From NCBI GenBank assembly GCA_039587315.1, contig JBDHIS010000004.1:32144-96143 (forward strand): a stretch of DNA of 64,000 nt, given 5' to 3'. Source of the stretch: Gemmatimonadota bacterium. Its GTDB lineage: Bacteria > Gemmatimonadota > Gemmatimonadetes > Gemmatimonadales > GWC2-71-9. This document shows, piece after piece, positions 9,283 to 57,079 of the stretch (position 1 is its first letter; every line of letters begins with the position of its first letter). Below the pieces are notes generated by a model, which saw nothing but the letters and a program-made list of their open reading frames with translations, searched no databases and had not been told where the DNA came from. Both the position numbers and the translations under genes were made by a program.

Positions 9283-9305
9283 TCTCCTCATGACGGGCGC
9301 GTAGG

Positions 9306-10823: not shown

Positions 10824-10860
10824 GGCGAAGGTCTCCGGCGAATTCGACGTTGGGATGTCG

Positions 10861-10889: not shown

Positions 10890-10900
10890 GGATGGATGGC

Positions 10901-11458: not shown

Positions 11459-11558
11459 GATGTGACTCTCCAGCACTGCCGCGTCCGGTTGCGGTTGCTG
11501 CCAGGATTCCATACACCGATGCATCCGAACTGTTCGGCATGGGGTTTACCTTTAGGCC

Positions 11559-41500: not shown

Positions 41501-41954
41501 AGAGCGCGCCCACGCCCATCGTGTTGGGTGAACCGAAAGGGAACAGGACGTTGGAGGCGGAGGAAACCGCCACGCCCTTGGGCTGGAACATGTCGCACAG
41601 CGAGAGCTCGAACGCACCGCGACCGGTGTAGATGGAGACGGCCTCGGGTCCGGATTCCTGTTTTATGGCGTTCAGCCGCTCTACGATGGTGTCGTAGGCT
41701 TCATCCCAGCTGATACGCTCGAACTCGTGGGTCCCCTTGGGACCCACGCGCTTCATTGGGTAGCGCAGACGGTGCTCGGAGTAGATGATCTCCGGCGCGT
41801 GCGAGCCCCGCCGGCAGATCATTCCGAGGGGGTGTCCGGTGTCGGCGCGGATGTCCTCGATCTTCCCGTTGCCGACCCCCACCTCCACCCAGCAACCGGC
41901 CGGGCAAATGCCGCAGATGCCCTTCTTCCAATCGAGCTGACCTGAGTCCATCAT
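38547..41954 (-). CDS. Fusion of a Mo/W-bisPGD oxidoreductase and an IscS/NifS-type cysteine desulfurase
   Basis: N-terminal CGICPAGC...C 4Fe-4S motif, RLRYPMKR, GALCY, WGANP, VIDPR, PGTD, DIVLP, domain IV FNSGAR..FRSQH; then YLDNNATT, HTDAVQ, SGHKFHGPKG (PLP Lys), RAGTENV, SSGSAC (catalytic Cys). Single ORF. Confidence 0.93.
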   Translation of the reverse strand: MMDSGQLDWKKGICGICPAGCWVEVGVGNGKIEDIRADTGHPLGMICRRGSHAPEIIYSEHRLRYPMKRVGPKGTHEFERISWDEAYDTIVERLNAIKQESGPEAVSIYTGRGAFELSLCDMFQPKGVAVSSASNVLFPFGSPNTMGVGALCYVSFAMIAPSVTLGRMLVNMFTDMENAEMLVVWGANPATDSPPLDMHRLEAAAKRGADIVVIDPRRTETATRTGAQWIPIRPGTDAALALSMIEVMIDEELFDEAFAEQWCHGFDELATYVQHFRPEVAESITGVPADTIRDLARRICSATGACPVIYTGLEYSNSGIQAIRAVFTLFALAGQLDVPGGIGLAMLDSHFPINRSCNQENPDLDRAVARETFPVYSDFRGESHASGLVKSVLEGDPYRIRGLVVHGASLLTSWPETAVWRETLSKLDFLVCVDRQLTADAAWADIVLPATTMFEIDSYMVYGPIFRLREKLVEPVGEARNDYLIMAELARRLGYGHLYPQTEEELVRFALEGSGHTPESVRAAGGWVKLPTSMMEFKKWEKGGLRTDGEPGFETPTGKFEIWSTTLEEYGYEPLPKYTEPTEGPVARPDLADRFPLVFNSGARPHTDFRSQHHGIDGLAKDNPEPTVEINAADAAARDISTGDLVEVHTPRGSVPFRARVTDDIVRGAVECNMGGGTPVGSKAWQEWNVNELTDLGNYDEVSGFPVYKALLCEVVKVEAGTAATRRTAALAAEACGPVTLSVPMIRTPQRSIYLDNNATTRVADAVREAMLPFLDATHGNPSSIHGVGRDARDAVENARRQVGRLINARPRRMTFTGGGSEADNQALKGVAFAQREKGNHIITSTIEHPAVLETCRFLERVGFRVTYLNVDEYGLVHPDALRGALTAETTLVSVMMANNEVGTVQPIADLCAVAHEHGVLFHTDAVQAAGKVPIDVESLGVDLLTLSGHKFHGPKGVGVLYARRGVKLDPLIHGGKQEGGLRAGTENVPAIVGLGKAAELALQAAQDTGQMRQLRDRLESGVRGLIPDATLNGERERRLPNTLNLTLPGLRGESVVVALDQHGISLSSGSACKSGSPEPTHVLLAMGRDADDVHCSVRFSLSAETTEQDIDDTVSALAQVLEEMETTVRFLPCK

Positions 41955-42046: not shown

Positions 42047-42688
42047 CTAGGGGCTCGTCTCTTCTTCTTCCGCCACGTAGGCGCTCGTGATGACGACGGG
42101 TTCGACCGGGAGAGCCTCGTGGCGGCCCACGCGCCGCGCCGGCACCGCCACTATCGCGTCCACCACGTCCAAGCCATCCACGACGCGGCCGAACACGGCG
42201 TAGCCCCAGCCGTCCGAGAACGTGCCGTAATCCAGCTTCTGGTTGTCCACGACGTTGATGAAGAACTGGGTCGTGGCGCTGTGCGGGTCGGGCAGGCGGG
42301 CCATGGCGACCGTGCCGCGCATATTGCTCAGGCCGTTATCGGCCTCGTTTGTGATGCCGCCGACCGAGCTGGACCGGCCCTGCATCTCGGCGGTGTACTT
42401 GCCGGCCTGGATCATGAACCCGGGACGCACTCTGTGGAACGTGAGCCCGTTGTAGAAGCCGATCCGCACGTGGGCCACGAAGTTGTCCACCGTGATCGGC
42501 GCCTTCTCGCGATCGAGCTCCATTACGATGCGGCCTTGGGTCGTCTCGAGGACTATGGTGGGCGTCGGGTCGGGCGCCACGGCCTCGCCGGCCGGCCGGG
42601 CGGCATCACCTTGGCCGCCTCCTCCCTGGCATGCAGTCAGCAGCACGGCCAGTGCGCCAAATGCCATCGAACAGTGCTTGAATCTCAC
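42047..42688 (-). CDS. Cyclophilin-type peptidyl-prolyl isomerase, lipoprotein
   Basis: GGAGGA RBS, GTG 42688, lipobox LTAC, APITVDNF, FYNGLTFHRV.PGFMIQAG, RGTVAMAR..DPHSATTQFFIN, GYAVFGRVVDG. Confidence 0.93.
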   Translation of the reverse strand: MRFKHCSMAFGALAVLLTACQGGGGQGDAARPAGEAVAPDPTPTIVLETTQGRIVMELDREKAPITVDNFVAHVRIGFYNGLTFHRVRPGFMIQAGKYTAEMQGRSSSVGGITNEADNGLSNMRGTVAMARLPDPHSATTQFFINVVDNQKLDYGTFSDGWGYAVFGRVVDGLDVVDAIVAVPARRVGRHEALPVEPVVITSAYVAEEEETSP

Positions 42689-42817
42689 GCTTCCTCCGTG
42701 CACGGTGTTTTGGACGAACAATAGGGTTCGCTGGACGGCCCCGCCGCGTCAAGTCCTGCGGGCGGTCCCGTTGGCGGGTCCAGCAGCTATTATAGGGGAC
42801 CTCACGAGGAGAGAGAG

Positions 42818-45091
42818 TTGAGTCCCGCCGATCGCGCCACCAAGACAGCCGTCGTATCAGCTGTGGTAACCGCAGCCGCCATGATTGCGTTCCAGATGGC
42901 GGCCAAGGCGACCCGCGACGCGCTGTTTCTGTCCACTTTCGATGTGTCGGCGCTGCCGCGCATGGTGATGGTGTCGGCGTTGGTGTCAATGGCCTTCGCA
43001 CTTCTGGCGTCGCGTCGGATGACCGCGATCGGGCCGGCGAGGCTCGTACCCGCCGCGTTCGCGGTGAGCGCGGCGCTCCTGATCGTGTGGTGGGTGCTCG
43101 TGGGCCAGTTCCGCCGCCCCGTGGCTGTGGCGCTGTACCTGCACTACGCGGCCCTGGGCGCCGTGCTCATCTCCGGGTTCTGGTCGGTCGTGAACGAGCG
43201 CTTCGACCCGCGTACCGCCAAGCGCTACGTGGGCCGTATCGCGGCCGGCGCCACCGTGGGCGGGCTCCTGGGGGGCCTGCTGGCCGAGCGTGTGGCCGTG
43301 CTGTTCACCATGGAAACGATGTTCCCGATTCTCGCCGGGATACACTTGCTCTGCGCGGTACTCGTGCTCGGCGTTCCCGCCCAGTGGCAGCGGCGGCCTG
43401 CAGTCAGCGCGCCGAGGCGGGCCGCCGAGAAGCCGGCCCGGTCGGGGATCAAGGTCATCGCCGAGACCCCGTACCTGCGCGGGCTGGTGACGCTCGTTCT
43501 GTTGGCTACGGTCAGCGAGGTCTTCATCGACTACGTATTCAAGGCGCGCGCCACCGGCACCATTGGTAGGGGCGACGACCTGCTGCGCTTCTTCGCCGTG
43601 TTCTACGCCGGTGCGGCGTTCCTCACCGTCATCGTTCAGGCAGTCGGGGCCCGCGTTCTGCTGCAGCGGCTCGGACTCACCCGTACGGTGGGCCTGCTGC
43701 CGACAGCGGCCGGCCTCGGCAGTGCTGCAGCCATCGCGATACCCGGGCTGCCCTCGGCGGCGGCTGCCCGCGGCGTGGAGCAGGTGACCCGCAACGGGCT
43801 CTACCGCACCGGATACGAGTTGCTCTTCACGCCGCTTCAGCCGGAGCACAAGCGGTCCACCAAGGCTCTGGTGGACGTGGGCGTCGTTCGCCTGGGCGAC
43901 ATCGCCGGCAGTGCGGTCGTGCAGTTGACCCTGGTGGTCGCCGCGGTGGGGGTGATCAACATCCTGCTCGGGCTCGCTATACTGCTGTCGATCGCCGGGG
44001 TCATCGTGGCGAGTCGGTTGCACAAGGGCTACGTAGCGACTCTCGAGAAGAGCCTCCTGTCGCGAGCGGTCGACCTGGACGACCTGGACGACGTCCAGGA
44101 CGTCGCCACGCGAACGGCTGTTCTCCACTCAGCGGGGGCGTTGGGTCTCACTCAAGCGCCGCCGCGCTACACCGCCGAGTTGGAGGCGGTGGCGCACGAG
44201 GCGGCAGCGCTGGCGGTGTCGGGCGAACAGCCGGTGCCGCAGCGCCAGCAGCTCGATCCTGAAATGGAGCGGATCGTGGAGCTCCGGTCGCGCGACGCGA
44301 AGCGCGTTCGGAGGGCCTTGAGAGCAGGGCCAGTCACCCAGGCGTTGGTGCCGCACGTCGTTCCGTTGCTGGCATGGCAGGACGTGGTGGCGGACGTGCT
44401 CCACGCGCTGCGTGAAGTAGCCACCGAGGCGACCGGGCAGCTGGTGGACCACCTGCTCGACCCCGACGAGGAGTTTGCCGTCAGGCGCAGGCTGCCCCTT
44501 GTGCTGGTTGCGAGCCCAACCGAGCGGGCGATGGACGGCCTTTTCCGCGGGCTCGACGACAAACGCTTCGAGGTCCGCTACCGCTGCGGGCGGGGGCTCG
44601 TGCGGTTGCTGGAGCTCAATCCGCAGCTGGGAGTGACTGAGGACCGAGTCTATGCGGCGGTCGTTCGTGAAGTAGCTGTGGACAGGGGCGTGTGGGAGAG
44701 TCACCGCCTACTGGATACGACGGAGGACGATTGGTCTCCCGTTGTGGACGAAGTCTTGAGCGAGCGCGCCAACCGCAGCCTGGAGCACGTGTTCACAGTG
44801 CTGTCGCTGGTGCTGCCGCGGCAACCACTCAAGATCGCCTTCCGCGGGCTCCACACCAACGACATGATGCTGCGCGGGACGGCACTGGAGTACCTGGAAA
44901 CGGCCCTGCGGGAGGACGTGCGAGAGGCGCTGTGGCCGTTCCTGGAAGACAACCGTCCCAAGCGGCGGGAGTCGCGTCCGACGAACGAGATCCTCGAGAA
45001 TCTGCTCCACTCGCAGCACTCGATCGTGATGAATCTCGAGGAGCTGAAGAAGCTGCAGCGGTCCAAGGGTGGAGAGCCGGACGACAACTAG
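42818..45091 (+). CDS. NTT/TLC-family (ATP/ADP translocase-like) carrier fused to a HEAT-repeat domain
   Basis: About 12 TM with AKATRDALFL, FWSVVNERFDPRTAKRY and LYRTGYELLFTPL..HKRSTKALVD; C-terminal helical repeats (DDKRFEVRYRCGRGL, LRGTALEYLE). Confidence 0.8.
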   Translation: MSPADRATKTAVVSAVVTAAAMIAFQMAAKATRDALFLSTFDVSALPRMVMVSALVSMAFALLASRRMTAIGPARLVPAAFAVSAALLIVWWVLVGQFRRPVAVALYLHYAALGAVLISGFWSVVNERFDPRTAKRYVGRIAAGATVGGLLGGLLAERVAVLFTMETMFPILAGIHLLCAVLVLGVPAQWQRRPAVSAPRRAAEKPARSGIKVIAETPYLRGLVTLVLLATVSEVFIDYVFKARATGTIGRGDDLLRFFAVFYAGAAFLTVIVQAVGARVLLQRLGLTRTVGLLPTAAGLGSAAAIAIPGLPSAAAARGVEQVTRNGLYRTGYELLFTPLQPEHKRSTKALVDVGVVRLGDIAGSAVVQLTLVVAAVGVINILLGLAILLSIAGVIVASRLHKGYVATLEKSLLSRAVDLDDLDDVQDVATRTAVLHSAGALGLTQAPPRYTAELEAVAHEAAALAVSGEQPVPQRQQLDPEMERIVELRSRDAKRVRRALRAGPVTQALVPHVVPLLAWQDVVADVLHALREVATEATGQLVDHLLDPDEEFAVRRRLPLVLVASPTERAMDGLFRGLDDKRFEVRYRCGRGLVRLLELNPQLGVTEDRVYAAVVREVAVDRGVWESHRLLDTTEDDWSPVVDEVLSERANRSLEHVFTVLSLVLPRQPLKIAFRGLHTNDMMLRGTALEYLETALREDVREALWPFLEDNRPKRRESRPTNEILENLLHSQHSIVMNLEELKKLQRSKGGEPDDN

Positions 45092-46548
45092 GTGGTCGCT
45101 GCCGCCAGCCGTTCGTAGCGCCGCCCGATCAGGACCGCCAGCACGAGCCAGCATAGCACGAGCGCCACGTTGACCAGCGCGAAGCCCCCGATGCTCAACA
45201 TCAGGACGTTGGCCCCCACGGCGACGACGGCCGCCGACAGCACGTCGCCCGCCCGCCAGAAGAAGGAGTCGATTGCCTGCTTGGCCTTGTACTTCTCCTC
45301 ACGCGTAGTGGGGAGGAACAACGTCTGGCGCACAGTGTTGTTGAGCGAGTAGTCGGTTGCGTTCTCGGCGGTCTTGATCAACCGGATCACCATCAGAATC
45401 GGCACGAAGGCGATCACCGAATAGCCTATGAGGGCGATCACCGGGAGGAACATCAGCGCCCTACTGATTCCCACGTACTTGATGATCCGCGACACCACGA
45501 AGGCCTGGAGCAGGAGTCCCAGCACGTTTACGATGGTGAAGAACGTGGAGTAGAAGGCCGCGATCCGCGCCTGGACGTCCTCCGGTCCCCCTCCCTCGGC
45601 AGCCACCGATTGCTCCGTGAGAGTCTCCACCGTTCGTCCGAGGATGTACTCACCGTTCGTGTTCACCCAGTTGAGCAAGAGGATCAGGAAGGCGATCATC
45701 AGGAGGTAGCGACTGCGAAACACGAGCTGGAATGCGCCGCCTTCGGACTCCTGCTCCAGCGGCTCGACCTGCGGCTCCTCGCCGGGCTCCACGACCTGGA
45801 AGATGCCGCTCTCTCTCTTGTAATCGGATTCGGGAACCCTGAACTCGCCGGTCGCGGCTCGAAACTGTCCTGTAGCGGCGGGCATCGTCCCGGTCGTGAA
45901 CGGGTCCGGCAGGTGCGCCTCGGTCCTGTAACGCTCGCGGCCGTCCACGACGTTCGTGATGACGGCGGCCAGCAGCAGAAATACCGCAGAGATGATGAAC
46001 AACTGGTAGATGCCGATGCCACTCAGCAGGTTCGGTATGTAGCTGCCCACCACGGCGCCAGCCGACGCCCCGAAGCCCAGAATTGGGAAGAGGCGTTTGC
46101 CCTCCTCGGTGGTGTACACGTCGTTGGCGAACGCCCAGAACTGGGCGACCATCATCACGTTGAAGATCCCGACCCAGACGAAGAACGCCACTCCCAGCGC
46201 GAAGCCGGAAAAGCCGGAGACTGCGAGAGCGTAGAACACCCCGAGACAGGCGACGAAGAAAGCTGTGACGCCGTTGATGAGGCGCCGCCGCGGCACGCGC
46301 GCCGCAAAGGCTCCGTAGGCTGGAACGAGGATGAGCAGCAGGACGACCTGGCCCGCAGACGTGTAGCTCTTCACCTCCGCGGTCGCGCCGCCCAGGATCA
46401 GCGCCTCGCGCACCACCTTCAGCACGTAGTAGGCGCTGAGAATGAGAAAGACGTTGAGCGTGAGGAGGAGGACGTTCACGCTCTCCCCGGCGCGTACCTC
46501 CGTGAACAGGCGAAGGAGTCTGTCGACCGGGCTGGGCCGGGAGTTCAT
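45088..46548 (-). CDS. NTT/TLC-family (Npt1/Npt2-like) nucleotide transporter
   Basis: YYVLKVVRE, QFWAFANDVYTTEEGKRLFPILG (cf. NTT FWGFANQIT..EAKRFY), DYSLNNTVRQTLFLPTTREEKYKAKQAID (cf. KYSLFD..KEMAYIPL..KGKAAID). Confidence 0.88.
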   Translation of the reverse strand: MNSRPSPVDRLLRLFTEVRAGESVNVLLLTLNVFLILSAYYVLKVVREALILGGATAEVKSYTSAGQVVLLLILVPAYGAFAARVPRRRLINGVTAFFVACLGVFYALAVSGFSGFALGVAFFVWVGIFNVMMVAQFWAFANDVYTTEEGKRLFPILGFGASAGAVVGSYIPNLLSGIGIYQLFIISAVFLLLAAVITNVVDGRERYRTEAHLPDPFTTGTMPAATGQFRAATGEFRVPESDYKRESGIFQVVEPGEEPQVEPLEQESEGGAFQLVFRSRYLLMIAFLILLLNWVNTNGEYILGRTVETLTEQSVAAEGGGPEDVQARIAAFYSTFFTIVNVLGLLLQAFVVSRIIKYVGISRALMFLPVIALIGYSVIAFVPILMVIRLIKTAENATDYSLNNTVRQTLFLPTTREEKYKAKQAIDSFFWRAGDVLSAAVVAVGANVLMLSIGGFALVNVALVLCWLVLAVLIGRRYERLAAATT

Positions 46549-46576
46549 GACTCTCGCCTCCTGCTCGTCACGTGCT

Positions 46577-48031
46577 CTACCGCGCGCCTTCCGCGGCCGG
46601 GTGCGAGCCCGACCACAACTCGGCCGTGGCTTCCACGGAGCTCTCCGATATGCCCTCGGCCGCGGCCACCGAGTCGGCCGGTAGTAGCACGCGACCCAGT
46701 ATCAAAGCCAAGGCGCCCGCTACGGCCGTGGCTACCAGCACGCCCAACTTCTCGACACCCAGCAGGTACGATCCGCTGAATGCCAGCTCCGCGATGAAGA
46801 TGGCCATCGTGAACCCGATGCCGGCGGCGAACCCCACCACCAGCATTCCGCGCCAATTCACCCCCTGCGGCAGAACGCAGAGCTTGAGCTTGATGGCCAG
46901 CCAACTGAGCGCGAGCACGCCAACCGGCTTGCCGACGAGCAGGCCCAATGTCACGCCGATCAAGGCGGCCATCGCGCCGGGTGCCTCGAGGCTGATTCCC
47001 GCCAGGGCCACGCCCGCGTTGGCCAGTGCGAACAGCGGCATGATTCCGTAGGCGACCCAGGAGTGCAACTGGTGCTCGAGCCGGATCACGGGCGCCACCG
47101 CCTCGCGACTCGCGAATCCGATCTCCTCGAGCGGCTCGATCAATGCGGTGCCCGTCTCGCCCTCCTCCGCCCGCTGCTTGAACTTCTGCAGCGACTTCTG
47201 CGCCGTCTTGAGGAAGCCCATCGGTCCGTACCAGGCGCGTGCCGGCGCCATCAGTCCCACTATCACCCCGGCAATCGATGGGTGGATTCCGGCGTGGTAG
47301 AGCCCGCCCCAGATGAGCAGGAAGGGCGGGATCAAAGTGGCCCCGGGCCGCACGCCCATTCGGCCGTACAACCAGACTACGAAGACGCCGCCGAGCGCGA
47401 TGAAAAGCCCCTCCACGGCGAACCCGGTCGTGTAGAACAGTGCGATCACCAGAATCGCACCGAGGTCGTCGATCACGGCGAAGGCCAACAGCAGAACCCG
47501 CAGGGCGGGGTGGACCCTCCTGCCGAGCAGCGCCAGCACCCCGACCGCGAACGCGATGTCGGTCGCCATCGGCACTCCCCAGCCGTGCTGCGCTGGTCCG
47601 CCCATGGTGATGGCTGCGTAGATGGTTGCCGGGACCAGCATCCCGCCGATCGCGGCCGCAATTGGAAGGGCTGCGCGCTTCATGTCCGAAAGCGCGCCGT
47701 CCACCATCTCTCGCTTGATCTCCAGGCCCGCCACCAGGAAGAACACTGCCATCAGGAGATCGTTGATCCAGAAGTGCAGCGACTTGTCCATCGTCCACTC
47801 GCCGATCCCGATCCGGAACGGCGTGTACCACAGCGCCTCGTAGCTGTGGGCCCACGGCGAGTTGGCCCAGAACAAGGCCGTCGCCGCGGCGATTATCAGC
47901 AGAATCCCGCTTGCCGCCTCGATGTGTAGGAAACGCTCGATGGGGCGTCGCATCGCCTGGGCGACGCGGAGTGCCGGAAGCCGGGCCTCGGGCGGGATCG
48001 TCGGGAACCCCGGGGAGCTATCGTCGTTCAC
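46577..48031 (-). CDS. nhaA: Na+/H+ antiporter NhaA
   Basis: EAASGILL, WINDLLMAVFFLVAGLEIKRE, GWGVPMATDIAF, AVIDDLGAI, PLFALANAG, GIGFTMAIFIA; GTG 48031. Confidence 0.95.
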   Translation of the reverse strand: MNDDSSPGFPTIPPEARLPALRVAQAMRRPIERFLHIEAASGILLIIAAATALFWANSPWAHSYEALWYTPFRIGIGEWTMDKSLHFWINDLLMAVFFLVAGLEIKREMVDGALSDMKRAALPIAAAIGGMLVPATIYAAITMGGPAQHGWGVPMATDIAFAVGVLALLGRRVHPALRVLLLAFAVIDDLGAILVIALFYTTGFAVEGLFIALGGVFVVWLYGRMGVRPGATLIPPFLLIWGGLYHAGIHPSIAGVIVGLMAPARAWYGPMGFLKTAQKSLQKFKQRAEEGETGTALIEPLEEIGFASREAVAPVIRLEHQLHSWVAYGIMPLFALANAGVALAGISLEAPGAMAALIGVTLGLLVGKPVGVLALSWLAIKLKLCVLPQGVNWRGMLVVGFAAGIGFTMAIFIAELAFSGSYLLGVEKLGVLVATAVAGALALILGRVLLPADSVAAAEGISESSVEATAELWSGSHPAAEGAR

Positions 48032-48159
48032 AGTGCGCGTATCCGTCCTGGGTTGGGGTGTTGGTATTCGAGGGACAATATCACTCCGGGTGAACGGCGC
48101 AAGGCGCGGCCGGTTCCCAATCGAGCCCCGGGCGTGATACTGTTGCTGGAGGAGCAACC

Positions 48160-49764
48160 ATGACTGACATCCAGATCCCGGACAAGCGACCGCGCCACGC
48201 CCCAACCGGGAGCGGCGGCGCGCTCCCGCCCGATCTGCTCGAGGCTGCCTCGCGCCGGCTGGGAGTGGCGAGCCTGCTATGGGCTGGCCTATGGGTGCTG
48301 GCGTTGGTCATGAACAACGTGGTGGGGCCGGCGCTCTCGCCTGGCACGCCGCTCGACGACGCATGGCCGTGGCCCGGGAACCCCGTGGCCATCGGCGTGA
48401 TCGTGATCTCTCTCGCGCTGTTTGCCTACACGCGGTGGCATGCGTGCGACTGCGAGCTCTCGCTCGATCTCGGACTCGTCTACGAGGTCGTGTTGGCCTT
48501 CGCGATCGGGTTCGTGAACCAGTGGACGCCCAACGTGATCGGTCTGTCGTGGATATGCGTCCTGGTGCTGGTGCATCCGATGATCGTGCCGCACACCAGG
48601 GGGAAGACGTTGGTGGCGGCCCTCATCGCGGCGTCCATGGACCCGGTGGGCCTCGCGATCACGGCCGCTCGTGGCGTCGCGCTCCCACCCGCGGCGGTGC
48701 TCCTATGGGCCGTGCTCCCCAACTACATCTGCGCCCTCATAGCAGTCGTGCCGGTAGGGATCATCACGCGGCTGGGCCGGCAGGTGCGTGATGCTCGCGA
48801 ACTCGGCAGCTATCAGATGGGTGACCTGCTGGGTCGGGGGGGGATGGGAGAGGTGTATGGGGCCAACCACCGGTTGCTGCGGCGACCGGCCGCAATCAAG
48901 GTGATCCGACGTGACGCGCTGGGCGCGCGCAGTAGCGAGGGAGCGAGCACCATTGTCCAGCGCTTCAAGCGCGAGGCGGAAGCGGCCGCGCGGCTATACT
49001 CGCCGCATACGACAGCCCTATACGACTTCGGCGTGACCGAGGACGGGAACTTCTACACCGTGATGGAGCTCCTGCGGGGGATCGATCTCGATTCGCTGGT
49101 GGATCGGTTCGGGCCGGTGCCGCCAGCCCGTGTGGTGTACCTGCTCACTCAGGCGTGCCACTCCCTCGCTGAGGCGCACGCGCTCGGTCTGGTCCATAGG
49201 GACGTGAAGCCGGCCAACCTGTACACCTGTTGGGTTGGGCTCGAGGCGGACTTCGTCAAGGTGCTCGATTTCGGCCTCGTGAAGCCCCCGCCCGAAGAGG
49301 AGGACCAGGTCAAGCTCACCGCGCCGGATCTCACTACAGGCACGCCTGCGTACATGGCGCCCGAGCTCGCTCTGCGGCAGGATCCAGACTGGCGCGCGGA
49401 CGTCTACTCGCTGGGCTGCGTCGCATACTGGCTGCTCACCGGCAATCTCGTGTTCCAGGCCGACACTCCGATGAAGATGATGCTGCGTCACGTGGATACG
49501 CCGCCGCTGCCGCCCTCGCGCCAAAGCGAGCTGGACATCCCGCCGTCGCTAGATGATGTGGTGATGGCGTGCCTGGAGAAGGACCGGCGGCGGAGGCCGT
49601 CGAGTGCGGAGGCACTGGCGCGCCAACTATCGGAGTGTGACGTGGGTGAGCCGTGGAGCCGGGAGCGGGCCGACGTGTGGTGGCGTGCTCATCTGCCCGA
49701 CCTGGTACCGAGCCGCGCAGGAGGTGCGTCCGAACCGAGAGCGTCGGCGACAGCCAACGCCTGA
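48160..49764 (+). CDS. Ser/Thr kinase with N-terminal multi-TM sensor domain
   Basis: About 6 TM, then LGRQVRDARELGSY, GRGGMGEVY, AAIKVI, HRDVKPAN, DFGLVK, GTPAYMAPE. Confidence 0.95.
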   Translation: MTDIQIPDKRPRHAPTGSGGALPPDLLEAASRRLGVASLLWAGLWVLALVMNNVVGPALSPGTPLDDAWPWPGNPVAIGVIVISLALFAYTRWHACDCELSLDLGLVYEVVLAFAIGFVNQWTPNVIGLSWICVLVLVHPMIVPHTRGKTLVAALIAASMDPVGLAITAARGVALPPAAVLLWAVLPNYICALIAVVPVGIITRLGRQVRDARELGSYQMGDLLGRGGMGEVYGANHRLLRRPAAIKVIRRDALGARSSEGASTIVQRFKREAEAAARLYSPHTTALYDFGVTEDGNFYTVMELLRGIDLDSLVDRFGPVPPARVVYLLTQACHSLAEAHALGLVHRDVKPANLYTCWVGLEADFVKVLDFGLVKPPPEEEDQVKLTAPDLTTGTPAYMAPELALRQDPDWRADVYSLGCVAYWLLTGNLVFQADTPMKMMLRHVDTPPLPPSRQSELDIPPSLDDVVMACLEKDRRRRPSSAEALARQLSECDVGEPWSRERADVWWRAHLPDLVPSRAGGASEPRASATANA

Positions 49765-49773
49765 GCCGTCGCG

Positions 49774-51480
49774 CTAGCGGTCCAGCTCGACCACGAGCCC
49801 GGCTTCGCGTGCGGCGTACACCGTAACTGACGGAAGCCAGCGCTCGCCGAAGTTGGCCTGTAACTCCACCTGAACGAACGGGAACTCCGATGCCGGCGCG
49901 GCGCCGAGGGCGCCGCTTCCGGCGACGTCGATGGTGCGCTGCGCCGTCTCGATCCATTCCGTGCGGCCTGCTCGGTCTCGCTCCGGAGTCACCGCCGCGA
50001 CGCGGTAGCGGTACCGTGGAGTCTGACCCGGGTAGATGTCTCGCTCCGAGCCGAGATCGTGGAACCGCAGGATCCCGTCCTCGTAGCGGAAGAAGTCCAG
50101 CGGGGAGGCGCGGTCGAAGAAGTACCGGGCGATCCTGTCGCGGCGCTCGGCCAGCGTGCGCGCGATGTAGCGCGCCGCCTCCGTGTTCGGGTACTTCCCC
50201 TCGGCAACTGCGGCCTCGATGTGCGCGTCGGTGAAAGCGGAGATGATCTTGGCCGCCCAGTAGCCGTCCCGGTTGGTGAAGTTGGCGAACGCGGTGTTGG
50301 GCTCCAGCGGCTTGAATGCCATCGGATGGAACTTGCTGCTCTCGAAGTAGCCCAGCTGTTCCAGCCCCTGGGGCGGCGCCAGCTCCCGCCACAGATCCTG
50401 CTTCACTCCAAGTGAGATAGCGCGCCCGAAGGAGCGAATGAGATCGAGGGTGTACTCATGGCAGGCCATCGGGAACGGACCGAGAGCCGCCGACCCTAGA
50501 CTGCTTGCGAAGTCTATGAGGTAGTGTCGCAAGAAGCGGCGGCCATCCTCCTCGACGTACATGTCGAGGGTGTTGCCCTGCTTGGTGTCGAAGTGACACA
50601 CCCATGCGGAGAAGATCCGCAGGCCGCGCAGCTCGCGCCGATCCTCGTGCTTCACGAGGTCGTTGGGATCGTCTCCGCGTCGGCCCTTCCAGTCGAACGG
50701 TCCCATCCATTCGCCGCCCAGGCGCCGGCTCGCGAGCGCGCGCCATGAGCCGTCCGGCAGACGCTCGACGCGGGAGAGCACGCTGTCGAGGTCCACGACC
50801 GTCATGATGCGCTCGCGCCCCTCCGCATCCGTGAACTCCACGCTGTCAGCCAACACCAGCTGTCTGCGCTCAAAGGTCGAGACGACGTCCTCCGGGACGT
50901 TGTAGCCGGCTGCATGGAACAGCCGGCCCGATATGACGCCCGCCGCCGTCGTAGTGCCGAAGAAACCGGGCGGGTCGAACTTGATGAAGTAGGTGTCGCC
51001 CCTGCCGTCCTCGATGGTGAAGCCGGGGGTCACTCCTTCCGTCTTCGCACCGACGACGGTCCACGGGCTCGTCGTGTCGGGGCCTGGTCTGGTGAGCGGC
51101 CCGCGCGCCGCCGCCTGGGGTGACATCGGGAAGAGCCCGATGCGGTTCGTGAACCAGGTCGAGTTGGGGACCTCGTCCAGGCTGTTGATGTTCCGGGCGG
51201 GTCCCGCCTGGTCGCCACCGAACCAGGCTCCGACTCCGCGCACGAGGCGAGCTGGATCGAACATCCGGCCGATCGGCCGGTTGATCGAAGCATCCACGCC
51301 GGAACGGAGGATGTTGGGGTCGCGGGGAGCGGGGGGCTCGATGTCGCGCCTGTCGTCGGCGTGCCACACGACCGGACCGTCCCCGAGCGGCGGCTCCCCG
51401 GCGTACGCCGCGATCCCGGCGCCGACACAGAGGGCGATGGCTAGCCCCCGCCTACCGCGGCGGTACCGGGTCCTTGCCAT
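49774..51480 (-). CDS. Exported protein with atypical (HipA/PI3K-like) kinase motifs, unknown function
   Basis: Arg-rich n-region plus hydrophobic signal; KTEGVTPGF..DGRGDTYFIKFD (G-loop and beta3 Lys), RLFHAAGYNVP, HFDTKQGN (catalytic-loop-like), YLIDFASSLG (DFG-like). Confidence 0.7.
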   Translation of the reverse strand: MARTRYRRGRRGLAIALCVGAGIAAYAGEPPLGDGPVVWHADDRRDIEPPAPRDPNILRSGVDASINRPIGRMFDPARLVRGVGAWFGGDQAGPARNINSLDEVPNSTWFTNRIGLFPMSPQAAARGPLTRPGPDTTSPWTVVGAKTEGVTPGFTIEDGRGDTYFIKFDPPGFFGTTTAAGVISGRLFHAAGYNVPEDVVSTFERRQLVLADSVEFTDAEGRERIMTVVDLDSVLSRVERLPDGSWRALASRRLGGEWMGPFDWKGRRGDDPNDLVKHEDRRELRGLRIFSAWVCHFDTKQGNTLDMYVEEDGRRFLRHYLIDFASSLGSAALGPFPMACHEYTLDLIRSFGRAISLGVKQDLWRELAPPQGLEQLGYFESSKFHPMAFKPLEPNTAFANFTNRDGYWAAKIISAFTDAHIEAAVAEGKYPNTEAARYIARTLAERRDRIARYFFDRASPLDFFRYEDGILRFHDLGSERDIYPGQTPRYRYRVAAVTPERDRAGRTEWIETAQRTIDVAGSGALGAAPASEFPFVQVELQANFGERWLPSVTVYAAREAGLVVELDR

Positions 51481-52858
51481 GGAACAGTCCTTTGGTCCAT
51501 TGGAAGATCTGCTCGCTCTTCATGCGGAACACGGAGCCCTCGCCGCTGCGCGCCCACTCGAACCGCAGCACGAAGCCCGACCCGCTCACGAGACGGATGC
51601 CCAGCCCGTAGGAGAGAGTGAGGTTGTCGAAGCTGAGCTTGTTGAAGCTGTCGAACACCTGCCCCACGTCGCCGAGTACGTACATGTCGAGACCGGGTCC
51701 TGCGGCGCGCTGGAACACCCACAGCGGCCAGCGATACTCGACGCTCAGCACTGCGAGACCCCGGTCGCGCCACCGGAAGTCATTGAAGCCGCGCAGCAGG
51801 TCGGGATCGTCGTTGGTGAGCATGCGCTGGAACGGGATCTCGCCGTCTCCGGCGCGCTGAATCCACGAAACGTAGCCGCGCAAGGCGAGAGTGTGATGCT
51901 CGTACCAGAAGGGGACGAATTGCTGCAACTCCCCTCTGAAGGTCCAGAGGTCGGCCTCGCCGCTGTTGGTCGCGATCATGTACGATGCGCGCAGCTGCCT
52001 AAGTCCGCCACGAGTGGGACGCCCGGTTGGCAGCCCGTCCGACTGACCCAGGAGAAGCTCAAGGCTCAGGCCTTCCGACCGCTCGCCGAATCCGGGCGGC
52101 ACGTCATCGGGGAACTGCTCGGGGAGGGACGGCTCGAAGTCGTCGTCCGGCAGGCCGGCGGCAACACCCGAGTAGAGGAACTTGCCGCGGAGGGCGAATC
52201 CGGAACCGAAGTCCCCGCGGTAGCTGAGTCCTGCCCAGGTGAGCTTCTGACGGTAGAAAGACTCGTCGAAGACGCTGCTGTTCGGTCCGATGCCGAAGTA
52301 ACGCGCGTTCGCCCTGTCCCGGAATCCCGCTCCTAGTACAATGCTGCCACGTCTGCCCGCGGGCGCGCGCGCCCCGAAAGTGATGCGCTGGTCGCCGTTC
52401 ACGGTGGCGTAGCCGCGCAGGCGCATCTGGACGCCCGGAAAGCCGACGTCGTTCAACTGAATCGCGAGACCGCCGCCGAACCCCGACAGGCCGCCGGCAT
52501 TGATGGCCGGCATGAGCTGGATGTTTCCCGGGGGACGGAAGAAGATGTTGAGGATTCGGGTTTCATCGGTCCACTGCACCGCCGCGAGCATCCCGTCCCC
52601 AACGAGCTTCACGGGGTAGGTGAAGAACCTGAAGGGAACTACGAGGATGCCCTCCCACACCGGCATCGCGGGGTCGCGGAACCGAGCCGTGGTCGAGCCG
52701 CTGGCCGTGGGGATCTCGCCCCAGTAACTTGCGCCGACCCCATCGGCAACGGAGTCGGCGCGGGCGTGAGGCTCTTGCGCCACTGCGGTGCCGGCCGGGA
52801 GGGACACGAGCACCGCGGCGATTATCGGGAGGCCGGACCCACGAAGCGCAGCGGCCAC
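51452..52858 (-). CDS. Omp85/BamA-TamA family outer-membrane beta-barrel without POTRA domains
   Basis: Signal peptide ending AVA-QE, barrel strands, LLRGFNDFRWRD (VRGF/Y lid motif), SVEYRWP, GDVGQV, SYGLGIR; overlaps the downstream gene by 29 nt. Confidence 0.82.
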   Translation of the reverse strand: MAAALRGSGLPIIAAVLVSLPAGTAVAQEPHARADSVADGVGASYWGEIPTASGSTTARFRDPAMPVWEGILVVPFRFFTYPVKLVGDGMLAAVQWTDETRILNIFFRPPGNIQLMPAINAGGLSGFGGGLAIQLNDVGFPGVQMRLRGYATVNGDQRITFGARAPAGRRGSIVLGAGFRDRANARYFGIGPNSSVFDESFYRQKLTWAGLSYRGDFGSGFALRGKFLYSGVAAGLPDDDFEPSLPEQFPDDVPPGFGERSEGLSLELLLGQSDGLPTGRPTRGGLRQLRASYMIATNSGEADLWTFRGELQQFVPFWYEHHTLALRGYVSWIQRAGDGEIPFQRMLTNDDPDLLRGFNDFRWRDRGLAVLSVEYRWPLWVFQRAAGPGLDMYVLGDVGQVFDSFNKLSFDNLTLSYGLGIRLVSGSGFVLRFEWARSGEGSVFRMKSEQIFQWTKGLFHGKDPVPPR

Positions 52859-52869
52859 CCGCGCCCTCC

Positions 52870-54294
52870 TTACTCGATCTCGAACACGACGAACCTGAGC
52901 TGGCCCCTGCGGTCCACGTGCAGTACGACCGGGTCGCCGCGCTGGAGTTGGCGCAGTGCCTGCGAGAGTTGCCCGATCGAAGTGATGTCCTGGCCGTTGA
53001 CAGCGTGGATTACGTCAGCCACCGCAAGTCCGGTCGCGACCGTTGGGACGCCAGCAGCCTGGGCCACCACTGCGATGCCGCCTTGGCGCCTCAGCCACGG
53101 CAGCATCGCGGCGATGTCCTCATCCACTTCGACCACTAGGATGCCGAGCTCGCGCACGAGGTTGCGCTCCTGTCCCACCACGTCGGCAAATGCGCTGGGG
53201 TCGTTGGCGCGCTCGACCACCGCTACGTCCATGTTCAAGCGGTTCAGCCCGCGGCGCACGTCGAGGGTGACCACGTCGTTCACGCGCCGCTGATACACGT
53301 TTACGTTGAACTGGCGAGCGTTCTCCATCGGCTTGCCGTTGAGCGAGACGATCACGTCGCCCACCTGTATGCCTGCTTGAGCGGCCGGGGAGCGCGGGTA
53401 CACGTCGGAAACCACAACGCCCCAGTTCCGCGTGAGTCTGAGGCCGTGAGCGAGCCGCGGCGTAATGGTCTGGGCGTTGACGCCGATCATTCCGCGGCGC
53501 ACGTGGCCGTTGTCGCGGATCTGCTCCCACACCGCGCGCACGATGTTGCTGGGCGATGCGAAGCCGATTCCCTCGCTACCTCCCGACTGGGACAGGATCA
53601 GCGTGTTGATGCCGATCAGTCGTCCATGCGTGTCGATGAGCGGACCGCCACTGTTGCCGGGGTTGATGGGAGCGTCGGTCTGGATGTATGCCATTGGGTG
53701 GTCATCTGCCAGCTGACGTCCGACAGCGCTCACCACGCCCATTGTCACCGACATCTCGAGTCCGAGCGGGCTCCCGAATGCAAAGACGAGGTTCCCGGGA
53801 CGAACCTCGTCGGAATCTCCCAACTCGAGGTACGGCAGGTCGGTTGCCTCGATCTTGATCAGCGCCAAATCGGTTTCCAGGTCGGTGCCGACGATCACGC
53901 CGTCCACACGGCGCCCGACCGGCTTCACCAGCGAGCGTCCGGGTTGCTCGCCCGACGCGGGCTCGGCGAGCACCACGGACAGCTGCCGCGCGCCTTCCAC
54001 CACGTGGTTGTTGGTGACGATGTAGCCGTCCGCCGACACGATGACGCCCGACCCGCCGCGGCGCTGCCGTCCTATGGCGGGAGCCGCTCCTGCACTCGCC
54101 TGTACCGGCCCGATTGCGGTGACGTAGATCTCGACCACGGAGCGCCCGACCTGATCGGTCATTGCCTCCATGAACTCGCTCAGCTCGACCAATACCGATG
54201 GAGGCGCGGCAGTCTCCTGCGCGTTCGCGGCGGGATTCCATACGAGCGAGGCGAGAACTAGCACCACACCGATGCGGGTGCCTATCCGATTCAT
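52870..54294 (-). CDS. HtrA/DegP-family periplasmic serine protease with two PDZ domains
   Basis: ATG 54294, signal peptide, GSGVI, TNNHV, TDLALIK, QTDAPINPGNSGGPL, PAAQAGIQVGDVI. Confidence 0.95.
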   Translation of the reverse strand: MNRIGTRIGVVLVLASLVWNPAANAQETAAPPSVLVELSEFMEAMTDQVGRSVVEIYVTAIGPVQASAGAAPAIGRQRRGGSGVIVSADGYIVTNNHVVEGARQLSVVLAEPASGEQPGRSLVKPVGRRVDGVIVGTDLETDLALIKIEATDLPYLELGDSDEVRPGNLVFAFGSPLGLEMSVTMGVVSAVGRQLADDHPMAYIQTDAPINPGNSGGPLIDTHGRLIGINTLILSQSGGSEGIGFASPSNIVRAVWEQIRDNGHVRRGMIGVNAQTITPRLAHGLRLTRNWGVVVSDVYPRSPAAQAGIQVGDVIVSLNGKPMENARQFNVNVYQRRVNDVVTLDVRRGLNRLNMDVAVVERANDPSAFADVVGQERNLVRELGILVVEVDEDIAAMLPWLRRQGGIAVVAQAAGVPTVATGLAVADVIHAVNGQDITSIGQLSQALRQLQRGDPVVLHVDRRGQLRFVVFEIE

Positions 54295-54338
54295 GCGACG
54301 ATTCCTTTCCTGACCAGTGATTGTCGCTCCGCTGACCG

Positions 54339-55955
54339 TCAACCGTCCGACACAGCGGGCGCGAGCTCTCCCTTGTCGCAGGGCGCTCTCTCTGCTTTCT
54401 CGGGCAAGTGGGTGTCCCACCAGCGGTGCGCCCGCGTGGTTGTCCACGGCTCGGCAAACCCGATGGACTCCAGACGGCGCGCGAGCTCGTACGCGCCGGC
54501 CGGCCGGTCCTCGGGCAGCTTCTCGAGACACTGGAGCACCAACTCGTCGAGCTCCGGCGGGATCTCCAGTTCCGAACGAGCGGACGGTGGCTCGGGCGTC
54601 TCCGAGATGTGCTTGTGCATCATCTTGAGTGGGTTGTCCGCCTCGAACACGAGCTGCCCCGTGATCAACCAGTACAGTACAGCACCGAGCGCATACACGT
54701 CTACTTGGCCGTCCACCGTGCGCTCTCCCATGGCCATCTCGGGAGCCATGAATGCCGGCGTGCCCGTCGTCATGTGCGGCTGCGTGAGCATGGTGTCTTC
54801 GGGGGCCTGGGCGCCCTTCACGAGCCCGAAATCGAGCACCTTCACGTAGTCTACGGATACGCCCATACGGCACGTATGGATGTTGGACGGCTTGATGTCG
54901 CGGTGTATGAGACCCTTCATGTGGGCTTCTGCGAGCGAATCGCACGCCTGAGCTACCAGCCGTGCGGCGCGCTCCGGCGGGATCGGTCCGTGCTGCTTCA
55001 CGAGGTCCTCGAAGCCCAGCCCGTCCAGCAGCTCCATCACATAGTAGAACGTGCCGTTCTCGGCCACACCGAAATCGTACAGCTCGATCGTGTGCGGTGA
55101 GCGGAGCGTGGCCGCGGCCTGCGCCTCGCGCTTGAACCGCTCGACGGCGACGTGCTGGGTCATCGACGAGCCAGCCCCGAGCACCTCGGGTCGGATGAGC
55201 TTGATGGCGGCCGGGCGCGCCAGCAGGCGATGCTCGGCGTGGTACACCTCGCCCATTCCGCCGCGGCCGATCTGGTCACCCAGCTTGTAGGCGCCGAGCT
55301 GCTTGGCAGCGCGCACCTGGCGTCCCAGCCCGTAGATGATCTTGGCCGGCAGCACGGCCAGGAATGCCGTGAAGTACGTCGGAGCGAACGCGAAGACGGC
55401 CTCGGTGGCGCCCCACGCCACCTCCACGCCGCGCAGCTGCGCGATGGCCAGACCAAGTGGATCCATGGATGCCGCAATGAGCGATGCGATGAGGATCTTG
55501 TGCGGCGTGTTGGGCGCGATGCTGGGATAGACCAGGATGACGATCGTGATCCAGGACAGCTCGTGGGGTGTGATGGGTGGCACCCACATCTGGAGCAGTC
55601 CGATGAGGAAGGCCGTCACGACCTCGAATCCCAATCCGATGTCGAGCAGCAGCTTGGGTCTGTGGTGCAGCCGTCCGGCCACGAACACCATTGCCACAGA
55701 GAGTACCAATCCGGTACCGGCGATCGCGTTGCCCGGCATGGGCCACGGGCGGTCGCTCATGAGCAGCGGCATGTCGATGAACCGCGTGGCCAGGTTTGCC
55801 ATCAGCAGGCCGAACGCCCACAGCGATGCGACCGCCAGGCTGGCGATGCCGACCCGCCTGCACGACTGCGACAGAACCTCGGTGGGCAGCGACATACGCC
55901 CGCTACCCGTGGTGGTCGCGGGGGTGTGGGCCGCGTGCAGGTTCCTGGAGCTCAT
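54339..55955 (-). CDS. Ser/Thr kinase with N-terminal multi-TM sensor domain (paralog of 48160..49764)
   Basis: About 6 TM, LGRQVRAAKQLGAY, GRGGMGEVY, AAIKLI, HRDIKPSN, DFGLVK, GTPAFMAPE. Confidence 0.95.
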   Translation of the reverse strand: MSSRNLHAAHTPATTTGSGRMSLPTEVLSQSCRRVGIASLAVASLWAFGLLMANLATRFIDMPLLMSDRPWPMPGNAIAGTGLVLSVAMVFVAGRLHHRPKLLLDIGLGFEVVTAFLIGLLQMWVPPITPHELSWITIVILVYPSIAPNTPHKILIASLIAASMDPLGLAIAQLRGVEVAWGATEAVFAFAPTYFTAFLAVLPAKIIYGLGRQVRAAKQLGAYKLGDQIGRGGMGEVYHAEHRLLARPAAIKLIRPEVLGAGSSMTQHVAVERFKREAQAAATLRSPHTIELYDFGVAENGTFYYVMELLDGLGFEDLVKQHGPIPPERAARLVAQACDSLAEAHMKGLIHRDIKPSNIHTCRMGVSVDYVKVLDFGLVKGAQAPEDTMLTQPHMTTGTPAFMAPEMAMGERTVDGQVDVYALGAVLYWLITGQLVFEADNPLKMMHKHISETPEPPSARSELEIPPELDELVLQCLEKLPEDRPAGAYELARRLESIGFAEPWTTTRAHRWWDTHLPEKAERAPCDKGELAPAVSDG

Positions 55956-56060
55956 GTCTGCTTCTCTCTCCGGGGATCCGGCCGAACGATTGCGAACATT
56001 ATCATAACGCGTGGCGCAACGGAAAGTTCGCCCGGAGCGAGCGGTGCCGACAGGGCCGGT

Positions 56061-56891
56061 CTATGCCTGCTTGCGCTTGCGGGCGGCCTTCTTGGCCGGC
56101 TTCTGTGCTTCCGTCTCCCCGCTCTTGGCGATGCTCGCCTTGAGGGCCTCCATCAGATCGATGATCTGTGTCTGCGGCTCCTCGGCGGGCGCGGCGGTGA
56201 TCTCCTCGCCCTCGATCTTGCGCTGGATCTGCTCCATCATGCGGTTGCGGACGTCGTCCTGGAAACTCTCCGGCTTGAACTCGTCCGAGGCCGCCTGCTT
56301 CACCAGTTGAACGGCGAGCTGGAGCTCCTCGTCCTTGACCTCTCCCTCGCCGAGCGGGACCTCGGAGAAGGCCCTCAACTCGTCCGCGTAATGGAGCTGC
56401 TCCATCGCGAGCCCGTCACCCATGGGACGCACCAGTACGAGGTACTGTTTTCCGCGCGCGGCGTAGCGTGCCAGCGCGGAGAGCCCGGTCTCCCGCATCG
56501 CCTGACTCAACAGCCGATAGGCGCGCTCCCCGCCCTTGTCGGGGCCGAGATAGTAGATCTTGCTGAGGTATTGTCGCTCGACCTGCTCGGCGGGCACGAA
56601 TTCGGCGATGTCGATCGTCTCGGTGGCCTTCTCTTCGAGTGCTTTGAGCTCGTCGGGGGTGAACAGGACGTATTGGTCCTTGGCGAACTCGTAGCCCTTG
56701 ACCATGTCCTCCCGCTCCACGACCTCTCCATCCTTCTTGCAGACGTACTGCTGCTTGAGACGGGAGCCGCAGTCCCGGTGGACCCAATTGAAGCTGACCT
56801 TCGACTTCGGCTCCGCGGCCGAGTAGAGCTTGATCGGCACGGATACCAGGCCGAAAGAGACGGTTGCGGCTGCTATGGGACGAGCACTCAT
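56061..56891 (-). CDS. ku: Non-homologous end joining protein Ku
   Basis: ATG 56891; SFGLVSVPIKLYSA, VKGYE, YYLGPD..AYRLLSQAM, QIIDLMEALKAS, basic tail. Confidence 0.96.
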   Translation of the reverse strand: MSARPIAAATVSFGLVSVPIKLYSAAEPKSKVSFNWVHRDCGSRLKQQYVCKKDGEVVEREDMVKGYEFAKDQYVLFTPDELKALEEKATETIDIAEFVPAEQVERQYLSKIYYLGPDKGGERAYRLLSQAMRETGLSALARYAARGKQYLVLVRPMGDGLAMEQLHYADELRAFSEVPLGEGEVKDEELQLAVQLVKQAASDEFKPESFQDDVRNRMMEQIQRKIEGEEITAAPAEEPQTQIIDLMEALKASIAKSGETEAQKPAKKAARKRKQA

Positions 56892-57079
56892 GGCGGTGGC
56901 CCCGCGTTCGTGAGGGGCGGTAGAATAAGGACAGCGGGGGCCCGTCGCAAGGCTCGACGCCTGGGCGGACTCCCATATCTGTTTATGGTGCAACTGCTTA
57001 GCTGGTAAGAGATAAACCGTAGTACGGTAGTCCCGTTATTGCCTGTGGCGCTTCCGCGCGGCTATGATTCCCGGCAACC

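Follow-up and report, generated by a model that had tools for sequence, protein, structure and literature searches.

A conserved Omp85 barrel and a predicted exported kinase-fold protein form the core of a candidate envelope phosphorylation module in Gemmatimonadota

Organization of the gene cluster

We analyzed a cluster of eight genes at positions 42818-55955 of a 64,000-nucleotide stretch of DNA from a Gemmatimonadota bacterium (hereafter, the window; positions 32,144 to 96,143 of contig JBDHIS010000004.1, assembly GCA_039587315.1). The cluster encodes an Omp85 barrel, a protein of 568 residues (X568) that is predicted to be exported and to adopt a kinase-like fold, two carriers of the NTT/TLC family, two membrane Ser/Thr kinases, an HtrA protease and the antiporter NhaA. 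The source genome comprises 3.2 Mb and is 98% complete. According to the labels of sequencing runs, the window sequence is present in marine and marine-sediment metagenomes; the runs containing it were marine and sediment DNA metagenomes only, with no clear RNA run among them. Genes were placed by listing open reading frames (ORFs) and by Pfam and NCBIfam profile searches, and their junctions were read from the DNA. A first-pass annotation of the same DNA, made from the sequence alone, had proposed an extracytoplasmic phosphorylation system at this site, and all eight genes that it listed were found at the coordinates given there by ORF, Pfam and NCBIfam analysis.

The run of genes on the minus strand begins with the gene for STK_B, the second of the two Ser/Thr kinases (54339-55955; Pkinase domain at residues 223-486, E 3e-41), and continues with the genes for an HtrA/DegP protease with two PDZ domains (52870-54294; TIGR02037, E 2.5e-109, with Trypsin_2 and PDZ matches), for the Omp85 barrel (51452-52858; PF01103 and NF047779) and for X568 (49774-51480), for which kinase-like motifs and a kinase-like fold, and no family match, were found. 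The stop codon of the STK_B gene is separated by 44 nt from the HtrA ATG at position 54294, which is preceded by a GGAAAGGA Shine-Dalgarno sequence, and the gap between the HtrA and Omp85 genes measures 11 nt. The TAG stop codon of the Omp85 gene (51454-51452) lies 29 nt within the X568 gene, the ATG of which, at position 51480, is preceded by a Shine-Dalgarno-like AAGGA. Both gaps and the overlap, all of them claimed before, could thus be read in the DNA. The 29-nt overlap suggests that the Omp85 and X568 genes are translationally coupled.

STK_A, a Hanks Ser/Thr kinase with a Pkinase domain at residues 218-488 (E 4e-37), is encoded on the plus strand (48160-49764). Its gene points toward that of X568, and the two stop codons are 9 nt apart. 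Next to the STK_A gene lies the gene for the Na+/H+ antiporter NhaA (46577 to about 47953, minus strand; TIGR00773, E 6e-115; PF06965, E 1e-133), the start of which was placed where the domain begins. The remaining two genes encode TLC/MFS-type carriers, TLC2 (45088-46548, minus strand; PF03219, 42.0 bits) and TLC_HEAT (42818-45091, plus strand; PF03219, 35.5 bits), the latter with a C-terminal tail of about 340 residues. The two carrier genes are convergent and overlap by 4 nt at their ends. A gap of 28 nt separates NhaA from TLC2, and these two genes are probably co-transcribed.

X568 represents a new family inside the kinase-like superfamily

At the level of sequence families, X568 could not be assigned. 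No Pfam or NCBIfam family matched the protein at E≤0.01, no significant profile match to the HipA_C, Fam20, CotH or Pkinase families of Pfam was found, and searches of PDB sequences, both with the single sequence and with a profile, returned no meaningful match. There are more than 3,181 close homologues, every one of which is labelled hypothetical, and a Pfam domain is absent from all 120 homologues listed. A profile of the family, searched against 1.84 billion representative proteins, detected 3,687 clusters at E≤0.001 and 1,191 clusters at E≤1e-30; among the 150 clusters listed, most proteins were 530-610 residues long. The X568 gene is single-copy in the source genome.

In an alignment of 30 homologues (53-72% identity), residues K167, H296, D298, K300, Q301, N303, D323 and F324 were invariant. 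The kinase-like motifs IKFD, HFDTKQGN and IDFAS were retained in 30 of 30 homologues, and further invariant blocks read WFTNR, DDPxD and RDGYW. In an AlphaFold model of the protein (pLDDT 80, pTM 0.83), in which the conserved N-terminal segment at residues 30-120 is of low confidence, K167 is positioned as an ATP-anchoring-type Lys in the predicted strand E163-167, corresponding to a β3-type strand. The catalytic loop shows the pattern of protein-kinase-like enzymes, that is, HxDxKQxN followed by a metal-binding-type Asp in the DFG-like pair D323-F324.

A Foldseek comparison of the model with PDB structures returned CtkA as the best match (E 5e-5), and all 16 matches at E≤0.001 were chains of CtkA or of Fam20 proteins, among them the Golgi kinases Fam20C and Fam20A; weaker matches included RIO2, PI4KII and AAK1. 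With CtkA and Fam20C as the top structural matches and with the catalytic residues invariant, the kinase fold that the first-pass annotation had ascribed to the protein was borne out: the model predicts a protein-kinase-like bilobal fold, and X568, with its complete set of active-site residues, may be catalytically active. Because all tests for membership in a sequence family failed, X568 is not filed in any of the named kinase families, and we conclude that it constitutes a new family inside the kinase-like superfamily.

The closest counterparts of X568 are CtkA of H. pylori (PDB 3akj, 3akk and 3akl) and the HipA-like atypical Ser/Thr kinases. CtkA, too, is a kinase outside the bacterial cytoplasm. 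However, it shows no sequence-level relation to X568, which is twice as long and, unlike CtkA, has a conserved N-terminal segment (WFTNR), a C-terminal β-sandwich, a predicted Sec signal and, as an obligate partner, the Omp85 gene. Fam20 chains (4kqa, 5yh0, 5wrs) come next among the fold matches.

The N-terminus of X568 exhibits, in 30 of 30 homologues, a positive charge, a hydrophobic stretch of at least 12 residues and small residues, followed by the conserved mature part, as judged by a heuristic and not by a trained signal-peptide predictor. X568 is thus predicted to be exported via Sec by means of a conserved signal, in agreement with the exported nature claimed for it earlier. A lipoprotein was considered as well and rejected, since the Cys in the hydrophobic region follows a Leu and is not conserved in distant homologues; a type I signal or an uncleaved anchor appears more likely.

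The partner barrel is an Omp85 protein without a detectable POTRA domain

In the Omp85 protein, PF01103 (36.8 bits; cut-off 24) and NF047779 delineate a C-terminal barrel domain, as is common to the Omp85 proteins BamA and TamA. The N-terminus consists of a hydrophobic stretch followed by AVAQ|EP, which corresponds to a signal peptide. A POTRA family was not detected in this protein even at E≤10, and the POTRA, ShlB and TPS profiles that would mark two-partner secretion were all without a match in the Omp85 protein or in X568. The arrangement resembles a TpsB/TpsA pair insofar as the Omp85 gene is coupled to a specific partner that is predicted to be exported; it differs in that no POTRA was detected in the barrel protein and in that the partner has a kinase-type fold and lacks a TPS domain. 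From its sequence, the barrel protein would therefore be classed as an Omp85 without detectable POTRA rather than as a TpsB. The Omp85 classes of Heinz and Lithgow (2014) reportedly include one that lacks the N-terminus and one termed 'Metallo'.

The Omp85-X568 pair is conserved across phyla and associated with carriers and kinases

A pattern scan of species-representative genomes identified 448 relatives of X568. We examined the best 80 of these 448 loci, onto which the window proteins were mapped by tblastn; 36 loci had full flanks. The loci carried the labels Gemmatimonadota, Eisenbacteria, Krumholzibacteriota, Latescibacterota and Fibrobacteraceae, plus one Acidobacteriota and one Dormiibacterota bin. 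An Omp85 gene was located directly upstream of X568 and on the same strand in all loci with room for it (71/71), and in 34 of 68 loci TLC2 was the next gene downstream, in the same orientation. The 36 full-flank loci contained, no farther than 8-10 kb from X568, a TLC gene of any kind in 30 cases, TLC_HEAT in 20, a six-helix membrane Ser/Thr kinase also in 20, HtrA in 11 and NhaA in five. Even divergent X568-like genes (35-44% identity) were immediately preceded by an Omp85-like gene in eight of nine inspected loci.

While STK_A and NhaA separate X568 from TLC2 in the window's clade, the Omp85, X568 and TLC2 genes outside this clade are contiguous in that order, co-directional and separated by short intergenic gaps, with differing flanks; the Ser/Thr kinase and TLC_HEAT genes turn up there again, differently ordered and oriented. 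Chance alone does not account for an arrangement that recurs across phyla. The gene-neighborhood comparison suggested along with the first-pass annotation thus came out in favor of a linked Omp85-X568 pair, and the proposed co-occurrence with carriers held in 30 of 36 full-flank loci without being obligate.

Among nine X568-containing genomes without an adjacent TLC2 gene, six encoded a close TLC2 orthologue elsewhere, two contained distant TLC genes only and one contained none. Across 151 Gemmatimonadota genomes, X568-like genes were present in 17, close TLC2 orthologues in 22 and both in 11, corresponding to an odds ratio of 20 (Fisher p 3e-7; uncorrected for phylogeny). Based on these observations, the two-gene core, an Omp85 barrel plus a predicted exported kinase-fold enzyme, is firmly established; NTT-type carriers and six-helix Ser/Thr kinases accompany it in a strong but facultative association.

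Two individual loci are worth describing. On one metagenome contig, the N-terminus of an X568 homologue (P0094) was called too far upstream and includes C-terminal strands of the preceding Omp85 gene. This gene-calling artefact arises because the Omp85 and X568 genes overlap, and it is therefore an independent sign of their adjacency on that contig. A Latescibacterota chromosome (CP070631; locus L052) carries a bare Omp85-X568 pair at 8523-11698, with no detectable TLC-family gene and with a soluble-type Hanks kinase and RND pumps downstream of the pair. It offers a natural test case for the dependence of X568 on the carriers.

Two distant members of the NTT/TLC superfamily

TLC2 and TLC_HEAT both pass the gathering score of PF03219 (21), and they are the only TLC-family genes in the source genome. 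The TLC signature blocks FWxFAN..KR and a helix-1 [KR]xx[KR][DE] motif are retained. A model of TLC2 (pLDDT 86) comprises 12 long helices, and the top five Foldseek matches were NTT1 ATP/ADP translocators from Arabidopsis and Chlamydia pneumoniae (E 2e-11 to 3e-8), ahead of the next-best MFS match at E 4e-7; one of the matched NTT1 structures was deposited as an ADP/Pi-bound state. The NTT family claimed for the carriers is thus supported by the structural proximity of the TLC2 model to NTT1 (AtNTT1 and Chlamydia pneumoniae NTT1; PDB 9j3j-9j3o). Compared to NTT1, the window carriers exhibit 15-18% identity, match in short signature blocks and score below the NCBIfam exchanger cut-off; they are distant members of the NTT/TLC superfamily and not orthologues of the characterized exchangers. 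They also reside in a free-living host and are proposed to export, as opposed to import by characterized NTTs.

The tail of TLC_HEAT gave a weak match to HEAT_2 (PF13646; E 0.0074). Many homologues carry both PF03219 and PF13646, under the JGI name 'ATP/ADP translocase/HEAT repeat protein'. The HEAT fusion noted in the first-pass annotation is thus evident in homologues and only weakly so in the window protein itself, the tail of which is presumably helical-repeat, HEAT-like and cytoplasmic. The same TLC plus HEAT_2 architecture characterizes the NTT-HEAT clade, which Major et al. (2017, PMC5381601) describe as uncharacterized and widespread among free-living bacteria.

Membrane Ser/Thr kinases and clade-specific accessory genes

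STK_A and STK_B are paralogues of the same architecture, in which about six N-terminal transmembrane helices precede a Hanks kinase domain (PF00069); the motifs HRDVKPAN/HRDIKPSN and DFG attest to a full Pkinase domain. Based on the positive-inside rule, their catalytic domains would be cytoplasmic, and STK_A and STK_B would for this reason not be envelope kinases themselves. STK_A is syntenic in eleven loci of the window's clade, and an STK_B-type kinase gene is found directly upstream of TLC2 in genomes without X568.

HtrA and NhaA had been counted among the parts of the system. As core parts they were rejected on frequency (11/36 and 5/36 full-flank loci, respectively); both are clade-specific accessories.

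A sister module encodes a fused kinase-like/Omp85 protein

We inspected four loci that contain TLC2 and lack X568. Their layout is Ser/Thr kinase, TLC2, a lipoprotein-like metallophosphoesterase and an 850-residue protein, followed by TLC_HEAT where the loci extend that far. The kinase is a six-helix Ser/Thr kinase and the phosphoesterase is of the calcineurin type. The 850-residue protein comprises a signal peptide, a conserved N-terminal domain (GDWDRHxxQW ... DRDQAF) and an Omp85 barrel, and is thus a passenger-barrel fusion, as is PlpD (type Vd). CtkA was the best, albeit weak, match of the N-terminal domain among PDB sequences (E 0.16). X568 and the fused N-terminal domain are analogous in position and not proven homologues.

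The fused gene also occurs beside X568 clusters, together with the phosphoesterase gene in two loci (L016 and L024) and without it in two others (L012 and L013). In the source genome, contig C29 encodes at 85355-87829 (locus L113, 8352-10928) a fused protein of 858 residues with a kinase-like N-terminal domain and an Omp85 barrel. A metallophosphoesterase gene (L113, 10904-12064) is located directly upstream of the fused gene and overlaps it, and a third six-helix membrane Ser/Thr kinase is encoded about 4 kb from it (L113, 2845-4455).

A model for nucleotide-dependent phosphorylation in the envelope

The cluster unites an enzyme with a complete active site and a predicted export signal, a dedicated barrel and the genome's only two ATP/ADP-translocase-like carriers. 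We consider it highly probable that the cluster genes constitute one functional envelope module, and the cluster, which is conserved across several phyla, suggests but does not prove extracytoplasmic nucleotide-dependent phosphorylation in these bacteria. The textbook view holds that the periplasm contains no ATP and that envelope processes are powered indirectly.

We suggest that X568, after export by Sec, would be held at or handled by its dedicated Omp85 barrel, and that its kinase domain would reside in the periplasm or at the cell surface. The NTT-type carriers would move cytoplasmic ATP out and periplasmic ADP, along with inorganic phosphate (Pi), in; the characterized NTT1 reportedly exchanges ATP for ADP plus Pi (Trentmann et al. 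2008). By analogy with such exchangers, TLC2 and TLC_HEAT may export adenine nucleotides, as an exchanger would run toward export when a periplasmic enzyme makes ADP, because cytoplasmic ATP is high in a free-living cell. This exchange would provide X568 with a phosphate donor where there is normally none, and the substrate of X568 could be an envelope protein, a lipid or a glycan. Regulation of the carriers by the membrane Ser/Thr kinases is conceivable because the catalytic domains of these kinases would be cytoplasmic; from there, they could tune transport via the HEAT tail of TLC_HEAT or via a long loop in the center of TLC2. HtrA and NhaA would be local additions in the window's clade. 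The full ATP-supply mechanism, in which the carriers feed exported X568, is a tentative proposal to which we give somewhat less than even chances.

The sister module invites an extended version, in which diderms of the Gemmatimonadota and neighboring phyla would maintain periplasmic ATP via NTT-type carriers, barrel-tethered kinases in split (X568) or fused (850-residue) form would phosphorylate the envelope, the lipoprotein metallophosphoesterase would reverse the reaction by stripping phosphate from envelope proteins or lipids, and the Ser/Thr kinases would gate the process. As a joint proposition, this scheme is doubtful. If it were true, it would be the first case of reversible, nucleotide-driven phosphorylation in the periplasm of a bacterium. 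If the carriers export ATP, they would open a new supply route of energy and signals for the bacterial envelope, and a first function would be at hand for NTT-HEAT carriers, for the POTRA-less Omp85 class and for an unannotated family of 3,687 representative clusters.

The closest functional analogy is found in eukaryotes. In the endoplasmic reticulum, the ATP/ADP exchanger SLC35B1 (AXER) supplies lumenal ATP for the Fam20 kinases of the secretory pathway. Fam20C and AXER thus follow the logic proposed here, that is, a kinase in an extracytosolic compartment fed by a dedicated ATP/ADP exchanger. They differ in being eukaryotic, in using a carrier of the SLC35 and not the NTT family and in involving no outer-membrane barrel, and their resemblance to X568 was seen in the fold only. 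In the literature that we searched, neither an Omp85-linked kinase nor a bacterial supply of ATP to the periplasm was described, consistent with the original statement that no system of such composition was known.

Several observations weigh against the ATP-supply mechanism. The fold match of X568 to CtkA is modest, with TM scores of 0.30 (query length) and 0.55 (target length) at about 11% identity, and a comparison of X568 with the fused N-terminal domain by hhalign yielded a probability of 3% and one short shared helix, for which reason we do not claim homology between the two. As to the carriers, the PF03219 matches span only 50-73 residues in short signature blocks, and the scores for the NTP/NDP-exchanger family TIGR00769 (31.1 and 24.7 bits) are far from its cut-off of 387. 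Moreover, at the position of a conserved Lys in the AKYSLFD block of NTT1, TLC2 has an invariant Asp, and the substrate may therefore not be ATP; the NTT-HEAT clade is without any characterized member (PMC5381601). At the level of gene organization, TLC2 resides with NhaA in its own transcription unit in this window, some of the conserved gene order in Gemmatimonadota is simply inherited synteny, and a chromosome-level Latescibacterota genome has the Omp85-X568 pair and no TLC gene, so that the link is not obligate. Finally, periplasmic ATP could leak through porins, which would be costly.

Alternative explanations

The difference between TLC2 and NTT1 at the conserved Lys would also fit a different chemistry or donor, which we regard as unlikely. 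X568 might modify an envelope lipid, lipopolysaccharide or a glycan, or use a donor other than ATP, and the cargo of the TLC carriers might be another anionic metabolite, for example NAD, a nucleotide-like cofactor or a different nucleotide. Among kinase-fold families there are kinases of sugars (Fam20B) and of lipids (PI4KII), Fam20 and PI4KII are among the fold matches of X568, and characterized NTTs carry varied substrates. However, the data favor no particular alternative donor, and a Lys at the second position behind the catalytic Asp, as in HxDxK, is typical of protein Ser/Thr kinases. Most of the evidence is common to this explanation and to the ATP-supply mechanism, with which it overlaps and from which it differs in substrate only.

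An improbable alternative is the secretion of an effector or toxin. Here, the Omp85 protein would export X568 to the surface or into the medium in a two-partner or type V manner, X568 would act like CtkA- or HipA-type kinases inside another cell that contains ATP, and the carriers and Ser/Thr kinases would do other work. In its favor, Omp85 proteins act as translocators in secretion of the two-partner and type V kinds, CtkA, the closest solved structure, is itself a kinase secreted by H. pylori, the 850-residue protein is a fusion of passenger and barrel, and the Omp85-X568 pair also occurs without any TLC gene. Yet no POTRA, ShlB or TPS domain was detected, no conserved immunity-like small gene adjoins X568, and X568 is single-copy with 50-70% identity across phyla, unlike fast-evolving effectors or polymorphic toxins. 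Moreover, secretion leaves the recurrent, rearranged linkage to TLC carriers unexplained. PADLOC matches were limited to the generic kinase-domain similarity of the Ser/Thr kinases, with nothing for X568, the Omp85 protein or the carriers, and we also rejected a role in anti-phage defense on this basis.

We give similarly poor chances to an uptake route for nucleotides or organic phosphates, modeled on the proton-coupled NTT importers of intracellular bacteria, in which the barrel would be the entry channel, X568, joined in the sister module by the lipoprotein phosphoesterase, would bind extracellular nucleotides or phosphorylated compounds in the periplasm or process them, and the NTT-type carriers would import the products. 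The organism comes from marine sediment, an environment in which extracellular nucleic acids serve as nutrients, and the sister module encodes a calcineurin-type phosphoesterase, a superfamily that includes the periplasmic 5'-nucleotidase UshA. In addition, all characterized NTTs function as importers of nucleotides for the cell or organelle in which they reside (PMC5381601). However, binding of such compounds would need no complete invariant kinase set (Lys, HxDxK..N, DFx), and a periplasmic kinase reaction would still require a phosphate donor. Furthermore, we know of no Omp85 barrels that act as solute channels.

Lastly, the genes might lack any functional link and be neighbors through inherited synteny in one lineage, as the whole 42-60 kb stretch, including the Ku, LigD, cyclophilin and molybdoenzyme genes, is syntenic in the window's clade, but this explanation is very improbable, given that beyond the clade the flanks change while Omp85, X568 and TLC2 stay adjacent and co-directional and the Ser/Thr kinase and TLC_HEAT genes reappear in other orders and orientations.

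Other genes in the window

Two further exported kinase-fold genes had been proposed about 6 kb from the cluster. The genes at 34675-35751 and 35739-36839 (both plus strand), probably the ones meant, encode tandem paralogues that are 52% identical and share signal-like N-termini along with a conserved GNTDW ... CCHN ... P(F/Y)DFD pattern. Their kinase fold was not confirmed: neither protein had a Pfam or PDB sequence match, and a CotH-like reading, suggested by the motif pattern alone, was dropped after profile and PDB searches gave it no support. A homologue of the 34675-35751 protein lies near the X568 cluster in just two of 80 loci (L012 and L013).

On the far side of STK_B, a Ku gene (56061-56993, minus strand) and a LigD gene (57080-59602, plus strand; phosphoesterase, ligase and primase-polymerase domains) are divergent and form a non-homologous end-joining pair. 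An ORF of 618 codons at 55152-57008 (plus strand) is antisense to the Ku gene and was discarded as spurious. Just upstream of TLC_HEAT, a cyclophilin-type peptidyl-prolyl isomerase is encoded at 42047-42721 (minus strand), which is syntenic only within the window's clade. Next to it, a single ORF of 1,135 residues (38547-41954, minus strand) encodes an unusual fusion, in which a molybdopterin oxidoreductase with Fe4S4, Molybdopterin and Molydop_binding domains is joined to a class V aminotransferase domain resembling cysteine desulfurases; it is conserved with 82-88% identity in syntenic relatives.

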